Assembly: GCA_964357615.1 (NCBI GenBank)
Contig: CAYHMC010000002.1
Location: 7,481-71,480, forward strand
DNA from: an uncultured Candidatus Saccharibacteria bacterium
GTDB lineage: Bacteria > Patescibacteriota > Minisyncoccia > UBA6257 > JACOXY01
DNA: 64,000 bases
Direction: 5' to 3'
The notes below the pieces were generated by a model. The model was given only the letters and a program-made list of their open reading frames with translations. It ran no database searches and was not told the DNA's origin. The position numbers and the translations under genes were made by a program. Below are positions 9,730 through 45,454 of the stretch, piece by piece. Positions within the stretch are counted from its first letter, which is position 1, and the number at the start of each line of letters is the position of its first letter.

Positions 9730-9774
9730 TGAATCAAATCGAGTGCCTCAAAGACACTCGATTTTTAAATTAAA

Positions 9775-10704
9775 ATGGAAAAGCAAAAAATAATTGTAAT
9801 TCTTGGTCAAACTGCAAGTGGAAAATCTGACTTGGCTGTTCAAATAGCCAAGAAATATAACGGCGAAATAATATCTGCTGATTCAAGACAGGTTTACAAA
9901 GGGCTCGATATTGGAACTGGGAAAATAACAAAGAAAGAAATGGTGGGCATAAAACATTATTGCTTAAGTTATGCCTCGCCAAAGCGCATCCATACGGTCT
10001 CACAATTTATAAAAATTGCAAAAAAAGCCTTGAAAGAAATTTCTACTAAAAATAAATTGCCGATACTTTGCGGTGGAACGGGACTTTATATTGATATATT
10101 ACTAAATGAAATTAATTTACCAGAAGTAAAACCTAATTTAAAATTAAGAAGGAAGCTTGAAAAATGTGATACGATAACTCTTTTTAATAAACTCAAAATA
10201 CTAGATAAACAAAGAGCTGATACTTTACTAAAAAATGGTGGGAACAAGAACAAACGGAGATTAATTAGGGCGCTCGAAATAATTTACGACACAAACAAGC
10301 CTGTGACTTATTTTAAAAATGGAATTCAAAACAGCAATCATAATAAAATAAATTATGCACCATTATATATTGGGATAAATATTTCCGAAAACAAACTTAA
10401 AGATAGAATACACAAAAGACTCATTCAGAGACTTAGGCGTGGATTAATTAAAGAAGTAAATGAGCTACAAGCACAGAAAATTTTAAGTTGGGAAAAACTC
10501 CAAAGCCTAGGATTAGAATATAAATATGTAGCGCTTTACTTAAGTGGAATGATAAATAAAAATGAACTCGCTACGCAATTAGAAAAAGAAATTTGGCGTT
10601 ATGCAAAAAGACAAATGACTTGGTTTAAAAGAAATAAATCAATTAATTGGGTGGGTAATAAAAACGAGGCTTATCGCCTCGTCGCACAATTTTTAAAAAA
10701 GTAA
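9775..10704 (+). CDS. miaA: tRNA dimethylallyltransferase
   Basis: The P-loop GQTASGKS and SADSRQVYKGLDIGTGK are the MiaA signature. Confidence 0.85.
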   Translation: MEKQKIIVILGQTASGKSDLAVQIAKKYNGEIISADSRQVYKGLDIGTGKITKKEMVGIKHYCLSYASPKRIHTVSQFIKIAKKALKEISTKNKLPILCGGTGLYIDILLNEINLPEVKPNLKLRRKLEKCDTITLFNKLKILDKQRADTLLKNGGNKNKRRLIRALEIIYDTNKPVTYFKNGIQNSNHNKINYAPLYIGINISENKLKDRIHKRLIQRLRRGLIKEVNELQAQKILSWEKLQSLGLEYKYVALYLSGMINKNELATQLEKEIWRYAKRQMTWFKRNKSINWVGNKNEAYRLVAQFLKK

Positions 10705-22762: not shown

Positions 22763-24040
22763 TTATCTAGTTGCGTTATAAATTGCTTTAACTTCTAATT
22801 CTCCAAGTGTGCGACTATAGACTCTAAGATCATCTATTTGGCCGTTAAAAAACTCACTTCCGGTGCTAAGCAATCCCCGAAGACTGCTATTACCAGCTGG
22901 ATTCGAACCAATACTTTGGCCATCATAACCTGAATTCCAAGTATATGCTCCCGAAACGCTAGCTACGCGAGATCCATTTACATAAAGGGATAATCCACTT
23001 GGGCCTTGCGTTCCTACAACATGAGTCCAAACGCCAGTTGTGGGAATATTTGGAGAATCAACACCTAAAGACAAAGGACTAAAAACACCGCTACGAACCA
23101 AATATCTAAGTTTTCCCTGATCGGTCATTCCTAACACAACTCCGTTTGTTTCTCCTCCAAGTTGCCATATAACTTGCCAAGTTGTAGTGGAATTAAAAAT
23201 AACCCAAGCAGAAGTTGAAATAGTTGAGTGATAAATTTCGGGACCTGCAAACCAACCATTTGTGTAACCAATATTAATTGAGTTGTTAACGCCATTAAAA
23301 GACATTGAATTACTTACCTGACCAGTACTCGGCGTGGCAGTTGTACTACTTCCCACATTACCACTACCAGAAGTATCATTTGTATTGCCATCTAATCCCC
23401 AATAAGCCTCAAGTCCTCTTTGAAAATTTCCTAAATTTAACATTGCTGTTGAACCAGTTTCGTAAATAGCCGGATCGGGACCTCCCTCTTTATTCATATA
23501 TGGCACTAGTTTTTCTGACTCGAAGAGTGCTGTCAACTTGTAAGAAGGTCCTGTTATATAAATATAATAAAGTCCAGATGAATTTGTGTTTACTGGATCA
23601 ACTGGAAGTTTTGTAAGTGGAGAGCGCGTCGAAAGCTTAGTAAAATCTACCGGCACCCAACCATTGCCATCTACCTTTCTTAAATTAGCCTCAGTAACGC
23701 ACCTATATTGCCACCCAGAAGGTAAGGGCGGTAATCCAATATTTAAACAACTTGAATCTGTATCTGGTATAGAAACATAAACTATTGTGTCTGGGTCAGA
23801 AACAACTTTCTTTAATAATTTGCCCTCAAATTCAATCAAATCTAGAGCTCCTCGTAGAGCTGTTAAATCTTGAGTACGAATAGAGTCTCTTGATTGCCGA
23901 TTAAATTCAGTCGGTCTTAAAACTATAACTATGGCTGTGCCTAAAATAGCAAGGATACCTATAACTATTAGAAGTTCGAGCAATGTAAAGCCATAGTTTC
24001 TTAGCCCACCCTTAATATTTACATGATTAATTTTAATCAT
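22763..24040 (-). CDS. Type IV pilin-like (pseudopilin) protein with C-terminal LamG/concanavalin-like lectin domain
   Basis: Class III prepilin leader and N-terminal helix (GFTLLELLIVIGILAILGTAIVIVL). The C-terminal LamG-type ending is FNGQIDDLRVYSRTLGELEVKAIY. Confidence 0.7.
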   Translation of the reverse strand: MIKINHVNIKGGLRNYGFTLLELLIVIGILAILGTAIVIVLRPTEFNRQSRDSIRTQDLTALRGALDLIEFEGKLLKKVVSDPDTIVYVSIPDTDSSCLNIGLPPLPSGWQYRCVTEANLRKVDGNGWVPVDFTKLSTRSPLTKLPVDPVNTNSSGLYYIYITGPSYKLTALFESEKLVPYMNKEGGPDPAIYETGSTAMLNLGNFQRGLEAYWGLDGNTNDTSGSGNVGSSTTATPSTGQVSNSMSFNGVNNSINIGYTNGWFAGPEIYHSTISTSAWVIFNSTTTWQVIWQLGGETNGVVLGMTDQGKLRYLVRSGVFSPLSLGVDSPNIPTTGVWTHVVGTQGPSGLSLYVNGSRVASVSGAYTWNSGYDGQSIGSNPAGNSSLRGLLSTGSEFFNGQIDDLRVYSRTLGELEVKAIYNATR

Positions 24041-33932: not shown

Positions 33933-34199
33933 ATGCATAAATTTAATGCTATCTTATTTGCTTGGTGGTTTTTAATTCAAGGATTCAACACCAGGTTCGA
34001 TTCAATGGTTTCTTCAACAATTGTCGGACCATTTCCAAATTTAGCAACGTGTAGAGAAGTAAAAAAAATCTCACTTTCGAATAGCAACGGCAATGCATTA
34101 GCTACGGCCTGCTGGTCTGATTCAGTATTAGAATACAACCAAGAAGAAGATAAGAATCCAAAGAAAAAAGCCCCAAAAAATCAAGGGCTTTTTATTTAG
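33933..34199 (+). CDS. Hypothetical small protein
   Basis: 88 aa with a hydrophobic N-terminus. A hairpin plus T-run overlaps its 3' end (aaagccc...gggcttttt). Confidence 0.25.
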   Translation: MHKFNAILFAWWFLIQGFNTRFDSMVSSTIVGPFPNLATCREVKKISLSNSNGNALATACWSDSVLEYNQEEDKNPKKKAPKNQGLFI

Positions 34200-34210
34200 T
34201 TACGGAAAAA

Positions 34211-35185
34211 TTAAATATTTCTATCTACACCGTGTAGAGTATCGTAAATATTCAAAATTGCTTTTACTGCGTCTCCTGATGAAATGTTATTTTGCTTGTA
34301 AAATACATCCGAAATATCTCCCGCTGCCCAAATACCTGAAGTGGCAAGTTGCGTTTTGTGATTAACTACTACTTCTTTAAGTTTATTTAAACTTATACCA
34401 GAAATATCTTTTACTAAATCAGAATTTGGATCCGACCCAATTTCAACAAAAACTCCATCTAACTTAATCTCGCCTTCTTCGTTTGTTTTATTGTTTTTTA
34501 TTTTAATACCAGTAACATTTTTACCTGCCTGCACGGTCAGGTCGCCCAAAACTTCTGTAATCTCTGTATTGTATAAAATTTCTACTTTAGAAGAGTTCTT
34601 GGCCGCGTCTTGGCTAACTGCATCCCCTCGAAGTTCACCGCCTCGAACTAAAAGATAAATTTTTGATACATAAGGCAATCCATCACGAACACCTTCGAGT
34701 CCTGCGTTTCCACCGCCAACAATCGCAACAACTTTATCTTTAAAAAGTGGGATATCGCAGGTACTACAATATGCCACCCCATGACCATCAAATTCTTTTT
34801 CGCCCGGCACACCAAGTTTTCTCCTATGACTTCCATTTGTAAGCAATAAGTATTTTGTTTCGATTGACTCTCCACTTGAAAGCAAAACCTTAAATCCTGC
34901 CTGCGCAGGCAGGCCATCTTTTTCTCCAGTCCTTTCAATTTTTTCTACACGAACTCCATCTTTAATTTCGATGTCTTCTTGAGCTCGCAAATGAGCTTCT
35001 AGGTTTTGAGCTAAATCAAATCCAGAAATTGATTTTGTTCCAATCCAGTTTTGAATATCGGCTGAAGTTATTGATTGTCCGCCAAAACTTTCTGCAATTA
35101 ATATTGTTTTTATTTTTTTGCGAGCCGCATAAATTCCGGCTGACACTCCGGCAGGGCCACCACCAATTATTGTAAGTTCATACAT
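34211..35185 (-). CDS. trxB: Thioredoxin reductase
   Basis: 324 aa. FAD site IIGGGPAGVSAGIYAA. Redox-active CSTCD (CxxC). NADPH site IVGGGNAGLEG. It is the last gene of a minus-strand operon. Confidence 0.85.
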   Translation of the reverse strand: MYELTIIGGGPAGVSAGIYAARKKIKTILIAESFGGQSITSADIQNWIGTKSISGFDLAQNLEAHLRAQEDIEIKDGVRVEKIERTGEKDGLPAQAGFKVLLSSGESIETKYLLLTNGSHRRKLGVPGEKEFDGHGVAYCSTCDIPLFKDKVVAIVGGGNAGLEGVRDGLPYVSKIYLLVRGGELRGDAVSQDAAKNSSKVEILYNTEITEVLGDLTVQAGKNVTGIKIKNNKTNEEGEIKLDGVFVEIGSDPNSDLVKDISGISLNKLKEVVVNHKTQLATSGIWAAGDISDVFYKQNNISSGDAVKAILNIYDTLHGVDRNI

Positions 35186-35235
35186 AGTGAGTTTAAGTTT
35201 AATATAAAACTCAATCTACGCAAGGAGGTTGGGAG

Positions 35236-36063
35236 CTATTTTGTACAAACTTGCCCGGGACCATCTGTGATAGTGTTGCAGGTTAAAAAATTTGGACAAT
35301 CACTGTTAGTTTTGCAAGGTATTTCACAGCTTTGAAATGCAGGTATTTGAGGCCCTGCTATTCCGTAATAACTTACACATTGCATTGGTGATGGACATTT
35401 ATTAGCGGATTTGCAGGATGAATGGAGCAAAGATAGATCATGGTTAATTGATTTAACTGAAAGAACGATAATTTTAAGAAGTTCCGAAATTTTTTCATTA
35501 GAATCATAGCCTTGCTCCCACAAATCAGAATCTTGACCAGAAGAAATAAGTACAATTTTATTATCAATCTTTCTAATAAACTCAGAACCTAGAAATCCCT
35601 CATATTCCACAGGAACTTGACCATCCAATTCAAGCATTGGGATGCCATTATAATTTATAAGTTTGTATGTATTTGCCTTTGTTAGATTAAGATTTTTATC
35701 GTCTATATTTTTCTTAAACCAATCTATTAGCGATAGATCAGTTTTAGAAATAAACAACTGTGTGGTTAACCCTAAATGAAAACTTGTTCCAAGTATATCA
35801 CCAGTTTCTTCAACATTCTTTAAGGGTTCAAACTGAGGATACATAAACTCAATTCCATATTTTTCACTTCTGTATGTTTTCCAGTTCGATGTATCAGTGG
35901 ACTTAGTGTCACTCTTAACTGACTGCAGGCTCTCTTGAATGCAAATTGTATGAAGTTCAATTTTATCTTTTTCAATTTCAAATAAAATTCGAGAACCAAT
36001 CACGGCAATAATTACCAATGTCCAAATAAATAAACGACGAGGATAAATTTTGCGAAGAAGCAT
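35236..36063 (-). CDS. Secreted/membrane-anchored protein with WKTYxSEKYGIEFMYP core domain and C-terminal Cys-rich module (paralog A)
   Basis: 275 aa with an N-terminal signal anchor. Its core is homologous to the adjacent gene. The C-terminal 60 aa carry 10 Cys (CKSANKCPSPMQCVSYYG...CEIPCKTNSDCPNFLTCNT...QVCTK). Confidence 0.5.
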   Translation of the reverse strand: MLLRKIYPRRLFIWTLVIIAVIGSRILFEIEKDKIELHTICIQESLQSVKSDTKSTDTSNWKTYRSEKYGIEFMYPQFEPLKNVEETGDILGTSFHLGLTTQLFISKTDLSLIDWFKKNIDDKNLNLTKANTYKLINYNGIPMLELDGQVPVEYEGFLGSEFIRKIDNKIVLISSGQDSDLWEQGYDSNEKISELLKIIVLSVKSINHDLSLLHSSCKSANKCPSPMQCVSYYGIAGPQIPAFQSCEIPCKTNSDCPNFLTCNTITDGPGQVCTK

Positions 36064-36066
36064 AAA

Positions 36067-36843
36067 CTATTTGTTAGTTGGTTCAAAAAATTTGAAAGAT
36101 GATACAATATCATTTTGAAGAGCTTTTATTGACTTTGGCGTTCCATATCCGTAGGCAGGAAGATTATGGCTTTGAAAATTATGTGAAAATATTAATACAA
36201 AATTTTTAGAATCAGGCATAATATAGTTATAGGCCAATATTTTTGGAAAATCCTCATTGGCGGTTGGGAACTCTTCTTCTGTTGGATATCGATCCATCTG
36301 CAGGAAAGATCCACCCTCAACCCTCAAAAGAGTGTAAATATTATTTTTAATTAGTTTGCCGTTATAATCTTCATTTTTATTAAACCACTGCGTCAAATTA
36401 AGATTTTCGTCATTTTTTTCTACAAAAAAAGTAAGCTGATCATCTATGCTAATTTCAGAATCATATTGAGTAATATTCTTAAAGGAACTTGGGTATTTAA
36501 ATTCGAACCCATACTTTTCATTGCGATAAGTTTTCCACCCTTGTACTGAGTTTGCCGAAGTAGTTGAGGTATATACTGATGAAGAAGCATTTAATCTATT
36601 ACCAACCGGTCTCCAAACATTTTGGAAATTTGGAGGGCAACTTGCATCGCACTTTGAAAGTCTACATGCCACACCAGTGCTATTTTCGCATTCTTCTTTC
36701 GTTCCATAAATTGTGGAAAGCTCTATTATTTGTGAATCCAAGATACTTATTAAGAAGATAGTGGAAATTCCAACAAGAGCTATAACTATTGCCACAATAA
36801 TTATTACTGAAGAAAATCCGGTATTTTTTTTAATTTTTAACAT
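36067..36843 (-). CDS. Secreted/membrane-anchored paralog B: Cys-rich module N-terminal, WKTYRNEKYGFEFKYP core C-terminal
   Basis: 258 aa with an N-terminal signal anchor. The Cys-rich segment follows directly (KEECENSTGVACRLSKCDASCPPNF). The core shares WKTYR.EKYG.EF.YP and an NLNLT motif with paralog A. Confidence 0.5.
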   Translation of the reverse strand: MLKIKKNTGFSSVIIIVAIVIALVGISTIFLISILDSQIIELSTIYGTKEECENSTGVACRLSKCDASCPPNFQNVWRPVGNRLNASSSVYTSTTSANSVQGWKTYRNEKYGFEFKYPSSFKNITQYDSEISIDDQLTFFVEKNDENLNLTQWFNKNEDYNGKLIKNNIYTLLRVEGGSFLQMDRYPTEEEFPTANEDFPKILAYNYIMPDSKNFVLIFSHNFQSHNLPAYGYGTPKSIKALQNDIVSSFKFFEPTNK

Positions 36844-36860
36844 TTAGCCTAAGAAATAAA

Positions 36861-37091
36861 CTACTTCAACTTAAGTGCTTCTTTAAGAGCAGAGCGATTA
36901 AAGCCAACATAGATCTCTCCATCTATATCTATTACGGGCACTCCCTTCTGATTAGATTTCTCAAACATTTCTTCGCGAGCTTTTGCATCTTCAATTACAT
37001 TAATTTCTTGAACTTGAAAATTATTTTCTGTAAAAAATTCTTTTGCCATTTTACAGTATGCACAATTTGGAGTTGAGTAAATTTTTACCAT
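36861..37091 (-). CDS. Glutaredoxin-like protein (NrdH/Grx family)
   Basis: 76 aa. It has VKIYSTPNCAYCKMAKEFF (CxxC in a thioredoxin fold) and a GVPVIDIDGE-type C-terminus. Confidence 0.75.
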   Translation of the reverse strand: MVKIYSTPNCAYCKMAKEFFTENNFQVQEINVIEDAKAREEMFEKSNQKGVPVIDIDGEIYVGFNRSALKEALKLK

Positions 37092-37138
37092 AGTTTAATT
37101 ATAAAACATAATTTTTATAGAGCAAGGGTCACATAAGC

Positions 37139-37555
37139 TCATATCTGCTTTTTTCCTTTGGTAATTAGAAGTACTAAAGCAGCAGAGCCACCAAAAAGCC
37201 CTATATCTCTAAAAGTGACGGTATCGATTCCCACAAGCAATATAATGCTTGCAAATTCAAGCGAGGAAAGAAGCGAAGCTACTAAAACTAAAATTCTTGG
37301 AGAGAAGGATACGAGAAAAATCAACGCCATGATAATTTCGCCTCCACCATGTATGCGCATATATATCTCAAGTGGAATAACAGCCGACAATATATCTGCC
37401 ATCCAACCAGGCAAAAAACCAATCCAACCGCTTGGATCTAAAATCATTCCAGAGCCGGAATATAGATATGTTATACCGAGTCCAAGCCTAAGAGACCATT
37501 CAGGAGTAAGTTTATCGAGTAACTTATATAAATATCCAATCACGATAGTAAACAT
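37139..37555 (-). CDS. DoxX-like small membrane protein
   Basis: 138 aa with 4 predicted TM helices. The pattern LRLGLGITYLYSG....GGGEIIMAL resembles the DoxX family. It is the first gene of the trxB operon. Confidence 0.45.
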   Translation of the reverse strand: MFTIVIGYLYKLLDKLTPEWSLRLGLGITYLYSGSGMILDPSGWIGFLPGWMADILSAVIPLEIYMRIHGGGEIIMALIFLVSFSPRILVLVASLLSSLEFASIILLVGIDTVTFRDIGLFGGSAALVLLITKGKKQI

Positions 37556-37677: not shown

Positions 37678-39036
37678 ATGTCTTTAGTCAAGAAAACACT
37701 CATCCTTTTTGGTGATTTTATCTTATTTTATGCGTCCTTAACGCTAACGCTTTTTTTACGCTATAATACCCCCCTTACAGCAATTTTACCTGGCGGAGAA
37801 GGAGATTTTATTCAATCATTATATGTTCACTTAATACCTTTTTTACCTCTGCTCTTTGTTTGGGTAATTATTTTCTATTTATTCGACCTATATAGCCCAA
37901 AAACTTTTCGCAATCGTCAGGTGCAGTTCAAGGCTCTTGTAGTTGCTTCTAGTATTAGTTTTTTAACTTCCATAATCGTATTTTACTTATTTCAATCTTT
38001 TTTCCTACTTACACCAAAAACAAATCTAGTTTTATTTGCGTTTATATTTTCAGTTTCTGATTATTTGTTTAGATTGGGAATTGGGAAAATATTAAAAACA
38101 AAAGAATGGCAAACCAAAACTTTTTTTATTGGAAATTCAGAAAGAATTTTCAAAATTTATAATTACCTTAAAGAAAATCCACAGATGGGGTTTAGCTTGT
38201 CAGATTCAAAAAAAGATATTCCAAATCAAAACGACGAAGAACTCCTCAAAGAGCTAAAAAACAAGGGAATCGATTTAGTTGTAATAGATGAAGAAATTTT
38301 AGAAAGTAAAAAAGATGTATTTTTAGGTATACTTTATGAACTCTCCGATCAATCTATCTCCATAACCAATTCATCAGATTTTTATGAAATTATTTTTCAA
38401 AAAGTACCACTACGAGAACTAAAAGATGATTGGTTCGTCGAACACATTGGGGATAGCAGAAAATTCTATGAGGCCGGCAAAGAAGTAATGGATTTTATAT
38501 TAGGCACCATACTTAGTTTTTTGCTTTTACCACTTAGCTTTATTATTGCACTACTTATTAAAGGAACATCACGGGGCCCAATTATATACGAACAAAAACG
38601 AATGGGTAAAAACAACAGACCATTCACTTTATACAAATTTCGCTCAATGAAAAATAATATGGAAGGCAATCTTTGGACAGATAAAAATGATGGACGACTT
38701 ACAAAACTAGGGAAAATTTTAAGATTTACACATCTAGACGAAATACCCCAATTAATTAACATTCTAAAGGGCAATATTTCTTTCTTGGGTCCACGACCTG
38801 AGCGCGTTGAACTCGCCCTTAAATATAGTTCATTGCCTTACTATAAAATGCGCCACATTGTTAAACCAGGATTAACGGGATGGGCGCAAATAAATTTCAA
38901 ACCTTCAGCTTCGCTTGAAGAGGCATATGAAAAATTATGCTATGATATTTACTATATTAAAAACCGGTCCTATTGGTTAGATTTCCTAATTGTTCTAAAA
39001 ACATTAAAATATTTCTTTACCAGTCAAAGTAAATAA
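37678..39036 (+). CDS. Polyprenyl-phosphate glycosyl-1-phosphate transferase (WbaP/WcaJ-like initiating sugar transferase)
   Basis: 452 aa. It has N-terminal TM helices and a C-terminal bacterial sugar-transferase domain (RGPIIYEQKRMGKNNRPFTLYKFRSM...DEIPQLINILKGNISFLGPRP). Confidence 0.85.
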   Translation: MSLVKKTLILFGDFILFYASLTLTLFLRYNTPLTAILPGGEGDFIQSLYVHLIPFLPLLFVWVIIFYLFDLYSPKTFRNRQVQFKALVVASSISFLTSIIVFYLFQSFFLLTPKTNLVLFAFIFSVSDYLFRLGIGKILKTKEWQTKTFFIGNSERIFKIYNYLKENPQMGFSLSDSKKDIPNQNDEELLKELKNKGIDLVVIDEEILESKKDVFLGILYELSDQSISITNSSDFYEIIFQKVPLRELKDDWFVEHIGDSRKFYEAGKEVMDFILGTILSFLLLPLSFIIALLIKGTSRGPIIYEQKRMGKNNRPFTLYKFRSMKNNMEGNLWTDKNDGRLTKLGKILRFTHLDEIPQLINILKGNISFLGPRPERVELALKYSSLPYYKMRHIVKPGLTGWAQINFKPSASLEEAYEKLCYDIYYIKNRSYWLDFLIVLKTLKYFFTSQSK

Positions 39037-44068: not shown

Positions 44069-45064
44069 TTATCTTACTATTCCGATTTTTCGCAGTACAT
44101 TTACAATAAATTTAGTTGGATAAAATATCCAATTTACACTTAAAATATAATCTCTAAACCAGCGATATCTTGTCATATAATTCATTGCTCTAATTGCCCA
44201 ATCAAGTTCGGCTGGTATAAAATTTTCCCAATTTTTTTCAAAATTCATATCTAGTTCTATGTCTTCCTTGTTAAAATTTCCCTGTTTTGCTTCGTTGGCT
44301 AACACTACATGCTCTGCTAATTTTGGATCTAAACCAACAATGCGCATTGCTGTTGCATCGAGTGCCACAGGATCACAACTTCCTAAGATTATATTAAGTG
44401 GTCGTGGTCTGCCATTTGTTGGACCCCTACCATCCATTCCAATAATTCCATCCATTATAATAAGTTTCGGTTTTAATAAACCATTTAATTGCACGATTCC
44501 CCTGTCTAGTGAATGATGGATAGCGATTCTATCATGACGAGGAATACATCCCCATTGATTTTTAAGAGACCCAGTAAAATAAGTCAGTGCATGTGTTTTT
44601 AATTTTGGCATAGTTATAAAAACATCAGCATCTAATAAAATCTCAGGCATTGGACCCAGTAAACTATTTCCAATATCACGAAGTGGTGAATTTGAAAGAT
44701 TTACAATTTTCACATTAAGCTTATCTGCTAATTCGTAAATTTTAGTATTTTTAAAAGCAGATTCGGCTGGAGCGCGATATGAATGCGCCTCTACAAGAGT
44801 TATATCATTTGTTTGCCTTTTTAATGCAACACAAAGCGCCTCTATAACTTCTGGCGAGGTATTAGCATTAGCCACCTTTTTTATATCAAATTCACAAAGA
44901 TTAAGTTTAATAACCACCTTTGAGTTTGGCTTTACAAAGATTTGGAAATTGAGACTATTTAGAATATCATCAACTGCTTTTTGAACGCTCTGATTTTTAA
45001 TTGAACGAACTACAACTTTGCTTGACATGATAATTACTATATGATAAAAACTTGTCAGAATCAA
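44069..45064 (-). CDS. DUF362-like protein
   Basis: 331 aa. The motif region GIIGMDGRGPTNGRPRPLNIILGSCDPVALDATAMRIVGLDP resembles DUF362. No Cys cluster is seen. Confidence 0.45.
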   Translation of the reverse strand: MILTSFYHIVIIMSSKVVVRSIKNQSVQKAVDDILNSLNFQIFVKPNSKVVIKLNLCEFDIKKVANANTSPEVIEALCVALKRQTNDITLVEAHSYRAPAESAFKNTKIYELADKLNVKIVNLSNSPLRDIGNSLLGPMPEILLDADVFITMPKLKTHALTYFTGSLKNQWGCIPRHDRIAIHHSLDRGIVQLNGLLKPKLIIMDGIIGMDGRGPTNGRPRPLNIILGSCDPVALDATAMRIVGLDPKLAEHVVLANEAKQGNFNKEDIELDMNFEKNWENFIPAELDWAIRAMNYMTRYRWFRDYILSVNWIFYPTKFIVNVLRKIGIVR

Positions 45065-45076
45065 GAAATCAAGGCA

Positions 45077-45454
45077 ATGAAAATGAAAAGTACAACTCTG
45101 CTTGGTTTGATGTTTTCGGTTATGATTTTGTCCTTTGGGTGCGCAAAATCAACAACCACTAACTACTTGTGCCCCATTGCACAAAATAGAGATAGTACTT
45201 CTCATGAAACTGAAATCAATCCTGATTTAATGTATGTAAAAGTATGGAGGTGTCAAAACGGAAACTATGTACTTGATGACGAGCAATGCAATATTGGCGT
45301 AAAGTGGGAAGGCAACACTCAAACAATCACTAGACCAACAATTAGATCCGCTTTAAACACTAGGTATGCCGGCAAGGAAATAGTTAAAATAATTAAAAAC
45401 AACTCATGCAGTACATGCAGTAACACATTTGATGTTTATCTAAAATGCAGCTAA
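45077..45454 (+). CDS. Small secreted/lipoprotein-like Cys-containing protein
   Basis: About 125 aa from MKMKSTTLLGLMFSVMILSFGC, a signal peptide with a lipobox-like LSFGC. It has 7 Cys. It is a plus-strand insert in a minus-strand block, with its own terminator. Confidence 0.35.
   Translation: MKMKSTTLLGLMFSVMILSFGCAKSTTTNYLCPIAQNRDSTSHETEINPDLMYVKVWRCQNGNYVLDDEQCNIGVKWEGNTQTITRPTIRSALNTRYAGKEIVKIIKNNSCSTCSNTFDVYLKCS

Follow-up and report, generated by a model that had tools for sequence, protein, structure and literature searches.

The window analysed here, a 64-kb stretch of contig CAYHMC010000002.1 from an uncultured Candidatus Saccharibacteria bacterium, carries on its minus strand a cluster of five genes (34211-37555). 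Within it, the genes for a small glutaredoxin-fold redoxin (Grx) and a thioredoxin-reductase-type flavoenzyme (TrxR, encoded by trxB) are separated by two genes for surface proteins, A and B, and preceded by the gene for a DoxX/MauE-like membrane protein. Our favoured explanation, which we regard as reasonably probable, is that a housekeeping redoxin-reductase unit of the Cp9/Cp34 type was split in one groundwater clade of Patescibacteria by passenger genes for PsbP_2 surface proteins, and that the DoxX/MauE-like gene was added upstream. Among the loci compared, the redoxin-reductase pair is split in one narrow clade only.

Homology allows the working of this unit to be outlined. The AhpF-like TrxR, with its FAD and its CSTC redox centre, would take electrons from a pyridine nucleotide, probably NADH, and pass them on to the 76-residue CAYC redoxin, which in turn would reduce cytoplasmic client proteins. 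The variable insert between the two genes carries genes for anchored, exported PsbP_2 surface proteins and, in relatives, toxin-antitoxin (TA) cassettes. Co-transcription of the five genes would then follow from insertion into a unit that already existed and would be no sign of a dedicated folding machine.

The redoxin-reductase pair and its arrangement in relatives

The flavoenzyme (34211-35185; 324 amino acids) matched Pyr_redox_2 (PF07992) over residues 3-292 with 120.6 bits against a cutoff of 26.1. It carries a GxGxxG-type FAD motif at its N-terminus, IIGGGPAGVSAG, and a redox centre, C140-S-T-C143-D, that aligns with the CxxC of AhpF. These features confirm the first-pass identification of TrxB as a thioredoxin-reductase-type flavoprotein. 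Among NCBIfam models, the protein scored 276.7 bits with AhpF (TIGR03140; cutoff 502.9) and 236.2 with TRX_reduct (TIGR01292; cutoff 343.45), in both cases below the equivalog cutoff. The N-terminal domain of AhpF is missing, and the best matches in the PDB were the AhpF structures 1hyu and 1fl2 (E about 3e-54). By these comparisons the enzyme appears nearest to the C-terminal half of AhpF and would belong to the low-Mr thioredoxin reductases. In thioredoxin reductases, the motif for the 2'-phosphate of NADPH is VxxxHRRDxxRA (PMC5627308). The window protein lacks HRRxxxR and reads LLVRGGELRGD at that position, where AhpF has EFAPEMKAD. Because the NADPH motif is missing, NADH is the probable electron donor; the sequence suggests NADH or another donor.

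The redoxin (36861-37091; 76 amino acids) is encoded in the same gene string as TrxR, about 1.7 kb away. It had been described as an NrdH-like CxxC glutaredoxin, of which the glutaredoxin fold (PF00462, 63.2 bits) and the CxxC motif (CAYC, Cys10 and Cys13) stand and the NrdH assignment does not. NrdH is defined by a C-[VMI]-Q-C active site and by location in an nrdHIEF operon (PMC3720550), whereas the window protein has no such active site and no adjacent nrd genes, and scored 52.8 bits with the NrdH model (TIGR02194), whose cutoff is 85.75. What it has in common with NrdH-redoxins is that it is a small glutaredoxin-fold protein expected to be reduced by thioredoxin reductase. The best fit was YruB (TIGR02196), although the score of 85.3 bits fell below the cutoff of 88.55. 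Cp9 (YruB) redoxins are described as electron carriers whose gene lies beside that of an NADH-dependent TrxR (PMC3720550). Their active-site type is C-[PGI]-[PYWQ]-C, in which the Ala of C-A-Y-C is not listed at the first variable position. On balance of these matches we class the redoxin as probably of the YruB/Cp9 type rather than as NrdH.

As a pair, the two proteins resemble the Cp34/Cp9 system of Clostridium pasteurianum and the TrxR/glutaredoxin-like system of Thermotoga maritima, sharing with them a CxxC redoxin of about 76 residues and a low-Mr, AhpF-C-like TrxR without the HRR of NADPH-dependent enzymes. The genes of the Cp operon are adjacent, as they are in relatives of the window (PMC3720550). 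Unlike in the Cp34/Cp9 system, the order here is redoxin then reductase, the pair in this clade is held apart by surface-protein genes, and the active site is CAYC in place of the commoner CP[YW]C. A further difference concerns peroxiredoxin, the equivalent of Cp20: no gene for it was seen beside the window pair or noticed among the 56 long open reading frames (ORFs) of the window, only some of which were profile-scanned.

The evidence for a split comes from comparison of gene neighbourhoods. Metagenome contigs scanned with a TrxR alignment yielded 80 loci whose TrxR was 35-57% identical, and adjacency was counted in the 68 in which at least 250 bp preceded the reductase gene. In 24 of these 68, the gene next upstream of TrxR, on the same strand, was Grx-like, and in 22 of them the gap was no more than 53 bp. 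The directly adjacent redoxin-reductase pair is a common arrangement. Near TrxR, none of the 80 loci had a PsbP-like core, the 8-Cys domain found at the C-terminus of A, or a DoxX-like gene. Since adjacent pairs are frequent and PsbP-like genes are absent from all of these loci, the PsbP-like genes are best explained as a clade-specific insertion.

The clade with the split pair comprises the window and three relatives, L001, L011 and L002. In L001, Grx is followed by a 360-residue PsbP-like protein, the homologue P0003, HicB, HicA and TrxR. In L011 (6 kb), Grx is followed by a PsbP-like protein that ends in another kind of tail with 6 Cys, several TA pairs, AbiE, a Cys-free PsbP-like protein, VapC, a 178-residue protein, HicBA and TrxR. 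L002 shows the homologue P0004, a TA pair and TrxR, and its contig ends before any Grx could show; a 76-residue product at the start of that contig was considered as a Grx and proved to be an unrelated fragment. The assignment to groundwater Patescibacteria is inferred from the sample name (Hainich well H41, 0.1 um fraction) and from relatives that are labelled Patescibacteria.

The redox pair is similar across these genomes. Grx is 88% identical to that of the window in L001 and 80% in L011, and TrxR of the close relatives is 80-84% identical. Between the window and L001, TrxR is 82% identical and the flanking sugar transferase (Bac_transf) 78%, against 36% for the core of A and 75% for its 8-Cys module. 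By this measure the PsbP_2 surface proteins of the interval appear to be fast-evolving. Synteny extends around the interval, with Bac_transf and a flippase on one side and a PAS histidine kinase on the other. Because the flanks are syntenic and the relatives close, the gene order common to L001, L011, L002 and the window reflects close kinship. The expectation of a neighbourhood conserved in relatives was thus borne out within the clade, where the order Grx, PsbP-like, TrxR recurs in L001 and L011, but not in the 80 wider loci.

TA cassettes lie between Grx and TrxR, or on the TrxR side of that interval where the contig is cut short, in L001 (9189-9636), L002 (1544-2018) and L011 (5584-10756) and include HicAB, AbiE-like, VapC/PIN and small pairs; the window interval has none. 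Because such cassettes share the interval in relatives, the Grx-TrxR interval may be suggested to be an insertion hot spot. PsbP-like genes themselves are scattered over Patescibacteria genomes. One lies beside TrxR in L027, where there is no Grx, and in L043 such genes lie between split transketolase genes, near Grx, where there is no TrxR. The motif W-K-T-Y-R-N-E-K-Y-G-F occurred in 79 of the 87 loci searched, nearly all of them from Patescibacteria genomes.

Surface proteins A and B and the 8-Cys domain

Proteins B (36067-36843; 258 amino acids) and A (35236-36063; 275 amino acids) each consist of an N-terminal anchor, a core of the PsbP_2 type and a Cys-containing module, which precedes the core in B and follows it in A. 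The core motif takes the form WKTYRNEKYGFEFKYP in B and WKTYRSEKYGIEFMYP in A. Residues 61-204 of A align with residues 103-251 of B at 35% identity over about 150 residues (E=9e-16), and the similarity between the two proteins is restricted to these cores. Both match the N-terminal part of the profile for PsbP_2 (PF18933), which covers PsbP-like extracytoplasmic domains common in Patescibacteria, and both, at 22.9 bits (A) and 19.4 bits (B), fall below the gathering cutoff of 27. Their membership would follow from their relatives: PF18933 matched 16 of 18 aligned relatives (best E=5.3e-15), and P0003 scored 28.4 bits, above the cutoff. A and B differ from PsbP_2 proteins in carrying extra Cys-rich modules. 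The profile of the PsbP-like family gave no PDB match beyond noise, and an AlphaFold2 model of full-length A from a five-sequence alignment left the core unmodelled (pLDDT 43 overall, about 30 in the core).

The first-pass annotation had proposed that the two paralogs carry the same Cys-rich module at opposite ends, as circular permutants or domain-swapped forms. The shared core stands, and each protein does carry, besides its WKTY-type core, a Cys-containing stretch, before the core in B and after it in A. We nevertheless find this proposal barely credible. Comparison of the Cys-rich parts gave E=12 with BLASTP and a probability of 0.4% over 3 aligned columns with hhalign, and the number and spacing of the cysteines differ. 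B has four (Cys 52, 60, 65 and 69), in a stretch of about residues 48-72 (EECENSTGVACRLSKCDASCPPNF; 36628-36702, minus strand). A has nine, namely Cys41 and the eight of its C-terminal module (217-273), a module that had been taken to hold ten. Each module has homologues of its own, P0007 for the stretch of B and P0002-P0005 together with hundreds of others for the domain of A, and P0003 holds an N-terminal Cys region together with the C-terminal 8-Cys domain. Because the Cys-rich regions are not homologous, there has been no module swap: A and B carry unrelated modules on a common PsbP_2 core.

The two proteins had also been described as secreted. Each has a single long N-terminal hydrophobic helix with no obvious cleavage site; A and B are better read as exported proteins that are predicted to stay anchored by their N-termini. 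The anchor of A is of the type P-x-R-[WL]-F-x-W-T, and A-type proteins share P-x-R-W-F-x-W-T. The N-terminus of B (36775-36843, minus strand) has a K-x-G-F motif in its anchor. The 8-Cys module was found with both anchor types, P-x-R-W-F-x-W-T and K/N-G-F. Many PsbP-like proteins (B, P0002, P0004, P0007, P0008 and the product of L001 6909-7991) begin with a basic stretch followed by [KNQ]-G-F-[SVT] and a long hydrophobic helix. Such N-termini look like a prepilin cleavage site, yet Glu+5 is missing and the N_methyl family of Pfam was not matched. A prepilin signal was considered for the N-terminus of B and, for the same two reasons, taken as a resemblance only.

In another assembly from this population (L003; ENA, Hainich H41), a 1-nt change in a T-run at about 36189 (T4 against T5) truncates B to 221 residues, and trxB shows two single-nucleotide differences. 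Together with a divergence upstream of the DoxX-like gene, described below, these may reflect variation within the population, phase variation at the tract or an artefact of assembly.

The C-terminal domain of A (residues 209-275; 35239-35439, minus strand) follows the pattern C-x5-C-x5-C-x-YYGIAGPQxPxFxxCExxC-x5-CP-x4-C-x4-DGPGxVC. Between the window and L001 or L002 its identity amounts to 75-84% at the protein level, against about 36% in the core, and to 78-80% at the DNA level, on a par with trxB (about 77-78%). A search with its profile returned 385 cluster representatives at E<=1e-3, of which 210 reached E<=1e-10, out of 1.84 billion. Most of the carriers, which include P0041-P0185, have 80-300 residues with the domain at the C-terminus, some have two to four tandem copies, and many show lipoprotein-like or signal-like N-termini and a high-GC composition. 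Among species-representative genomes, the domain occurred in Nannocystis, in Kofleriaceae and in one further high-GC metagenome-assembled genome, in small proteins of 122-135 residues (L008 2022-2429, L009 7749-8156 and L010 7785-8153). The eight cysteines, YYGIAGPQ, CP and DGPG-x-VC are invariant across these phyla.

No Pfam or NCBIfam family corresponds to this domain, the sub-threshold matches being Lustrin_cystein (3.9e-5), Myxo_Cys_RPT (0.009) and WAP (0.019). Modelled alone with AlphaFold2, the domain showed four strands (pLDDT 70.6). Foldseek returned no significant fold neighbour in the PDB, the top hits being Dkk1 and MIT1 (E=0.7), and the profile had no PDB sequence match beyond noise. 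With about 55-60 residues, 8 Cys, a beta-rich fold and what look like two C-x5-CP-x4-C half-units, the domain of A resembles small disulfide-rich modules such as the colipase/Dickkopf type, WAP, the Cys-rich repeat of Lustrin and the myxobacterial Cys repeat, but its matches to them are non-significant and the core motif YYGIAGPxGP is specific to its own family. The halves share C-K-x4-C-P-x4-C, and 20 of 2000 shuffled sequences scored as high, which hints at an internal duplication. The 8-Cys domain, which also occurs singly or in tandem in small lipoprotein-like proteins, is an autonomous, uncatalogued family that ranges from Patescibacteria to Myxococcota. Elsewhere in the window, a lipoprotein-like ORF of 137 residues with 8 Cys (45041-45454, plus strand) has only a weak zinc-ribbon match and is unrelated to the domain of A.

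The DoxX/MauE-like protein and thiol-redox alternatives

The first gene of the cluster (37139-37555; 138 amino acids) encodes a protein with several hydrophobic segments, no Cys and the conserved motifs PEWSLRLGLG...YLYSG and TFRDIGL.G. Of its earlier description as DoxX-like, the small multi-pass membrane protein stands; the family assignment is less secure, since matches appeared in some homologues alone and were weak. The protein itself had no Pfam or NCBIfam match at E<=0.1. In an alignment of 20 homologues (A1), four matched DoxX (PF07681; best E=0.0051) and four matched MauE (PF07291; best E=0.0072), all below threshold, and no Cys is conserved. The family profile found nothing beyond noise in the PDB. 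A distant relationship to the DoxX/MauE clan is weakly supported by these matches. The likeness lies in a small multi-pass membrane protein whose gene is often beside thioredoxin-fold genes, and in an invariant Glu and near-invariant Arg of the early helices that are reminiscent of the conserved Lys/Glu pair of MauE.

L001 and L011 have no DoxX-like gene at this position, and the second assembly, L003, no longer matches the window at all from 10 nt before the start codon of that gene (37565) to the end of its contig. The gene is a genome-specific upstream addition.

Several observations weigh against a purely passenger role for the genes around the redox pair. At least one PsbP-like gene occupies the interval in all four clade members. 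At least 4 Cys occur in 7 of 8 interval proteins, compared with 36% of 94 PsbP-like ORFs elsewhere, a small sample in which the eight proteins come from four related genomes, several with the same inherited module, and are phylogenetically non-independent. Just upstream on the same strand, the nearest outgroup loci have a gene for a DsbA-like protein (Thioredoxin_4, 117.5 bits; CPFC, anchored by a transmembrane segment), which precedes Grx-TrxR in L094 (8537-10918) and L089 (7766-10918) and TrxR in L091 (8167-10918), L092 (202-2322) and L075 (7252-8798). Its immediate neighbour in L094 and L091 is the divergent Bac_transf gene that also borders the window cluster. The window clade has no DsbA-like gene at this locus. 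Because of these upstream DsbA-like genes, there is a circumstantial case that the locus has a broader thiol-redox theme. In L089, a short ORF between Grx and TrxR (9757-10008) repeats the N-terminus of TrxR (MYDLIIVGGGPGGVAAGVYA) and is probably the remnant of a partial duplication.

The homologues of the DoxX-like protein point the same way. In 5 of 8 contexts they stand between genes for a small thioredoxin and for CcdA, in cassettes (L006 5729-8677, L007 4889-7555, L168 3739-5743, L169 3-3101 and L171 2928-5782) that run from a cytoplasmic thioredoxin (SSPGCxHC, 86-91 residues) through the Cys-free DoxX/MauE-like protein to CcdA/DsbD_TM. The first two genes abut or overlap, with a shared 8 nt in L168 and 4 nt in L171 and a spacing of 2 nt in L006. 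This cassette, recurrent in Patescibacteria, recalls the export of reductant by Scs/CcdA-type systems, here with an additional membrane partner not described before, and the position of the DoxX-like gene beside the redoxin in the window may be non-random. A cupredoxin and a copper P-type ATPase are often encoded downstream of the cassette.

These observations bear on an alternative in which the cluster is a functional thiol-redox neighbourhood, its cytoplasmic reductants being co-expressed under selection with Cys-rich exported proteins. Grx and TrxR might keep Cys-rich precursors reduced and export-competent, or reducing equivalents might be fed outward for disulfide isomerisation with the DoxX/MauE-like protein taking part. 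The outgroup DsbA-like genes, the thioredoxin/DoxX-like/CcdA cassettes, the Cys enrichment of the interval proteins and a report that MauE-family proteins can replace DsbB (bioRxiv 10.64898/2026.03.05.709764) all speak for it. However, the activity of MauE requires a CXC motif in the loop between transmembrane helices 3 and 4 (bioRxiv 10.64898/2026.03.05.709764), and the DoxX-like protein, which lies below every Pfam threshold, has neither this motif nor any Cys. Homologues of CcdA, of small Trx_3-type thioredoxins and of DsbA were absent from the 64-kb window by tblastn. The DoxX-like gene is missing in two clade members, TA cassettes occupy the same interval, and one interval protein (L011, 223 residues) is Cys-free. 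Local tblastn also detected no Grx or TrxR homologues in the fetched flanks of the three myxobacterial-type 8-Cys loci. On this evidence we consider the alternative unlikely.

A narrower proposal would make a Cys-free protein of the DoxX/MauE clan and a soluble thioredoxin-fold partner an undescribed envelope route of thiol redox, the partner being Grx here and a CxHC thioredoxin with CcdA in other Patescibacteria, and the Cys-rich PsbP-like proteins being co-expressed clients. Its premise is that the ultra-small bacteria concerned may be without DsbB, VKOR and a CXC-type MauE. We regard it as a long shot. The first-pass annotation had gone further and read the cluster as a dedicated envelope redox or folding system, which the comparison does not establish: PsbP-like genes are missing from all of the wider loci, TA cassettes share the interval, and the DoxX-like gene is both Cys-free in its product and missing in relatives.

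Transcription signals and neighbouring genes

All five minus-strand ORFs that had been proposed were found, with identical boundaries, and the tight co-directional spacing claimed for them was likewise borne out. The gaps are 47 bp between the DoxX-like gene and Grx, 17 bp between Grx and B, 3 bp between B and A, and 50 bp between A and TrxR. A hairpin with a U-run, resembling an intrinsic terminator, begins 18 nt past the trxB stop codon (34164-34193, minus strand; -14.7 kcal/mol, z=-3.2 against shuffled sequences), and a consensus scan of the minus strand found no terminator-like site between the five genes. Upstream, the cluster is bounded by the divergent sugar-transferase gene (37678-39036, a Bac_transf homologue). 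The genes are co-directional and closely spaced, without an internal terminator and with one at the end, as expected of an operon. Because of the tight spacing and the single terminator, we predict that the five genes are probably co-transcribed.

It could instead be supposed that the neighbourhood is accidental, that is, that genes with separate promoters and unrelated functions are co-directional by chance. AT-rich -10-like boxes do precede the DoxX-like gene (TGTTATAAT), Grx (TTTTATAAT) and trxB (TATATT), and the interval content is different in every relative. The spacer between A and trxB (35186-35235, minus strand) can also form a hairpin that is weak and AU-rich (-6.8 kcal/mol, z=-2.6) and lacks a U-run. 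It stops a few nt short of the start codon of trxB and may be due to chance or influence translation of that gene. However, a sequence with 33% GC should contain AT-rich -10-like hexamers by chance, and the promoter scan found 16 sites against a mean of 17 in shuffled sequence, no excess. With gaps of just 3-50 bp, no internal minus-strand terminator and a clear one after trxB, an accidental neighbourhood seems improbable, and we retain insertion into an existing redoxin-reductase unit as the preferred reading.

Rfam and tRNA scans found no RNA elements or tRNAs in the window. A small ORF of 72-93 residues converges on trxB in the window (33933-34199, plus strand), L002 (3091-3372, minus strand) and L011 (11876-12094, minus strand). 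The encoded protein is hydrophobic and rich in W/F at its N-terminus, contains VGPFP and a pair of conserved cysteines (C...CWSD), and matched no family. The 3' end of the window copy runs into the terminator hairpin of trxB. Farther away, a type IV pilin-like protein (22763-24040, minus strand; N_methyl motif, GFTLLELL) is fused to a Laminin_G_3/ConA-like lectin domain and could be an adhesive pilin.

In conclusion, our analysis presents a redoxin-reductase unit as a landing site for fast-evolving surface-protein and TA genes in one groundwater clade of Patescibacteria, a locus at which co-directionality is no proof of a dedicated pathway. The redox pair and the PsbP_2 core belong to known kinds; the 8-Cys domain and the thioredoxin/DoxX-like/CcdA cassette are more original. 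The 8-Cys domain, with its signature YYGIAGPxGP...DGPGxVC, is better conserved than the proteins that carry it. Furthermore, the cassette bears on extracytoplasmic thiol chemistry in organisms without classical Dsb systems.

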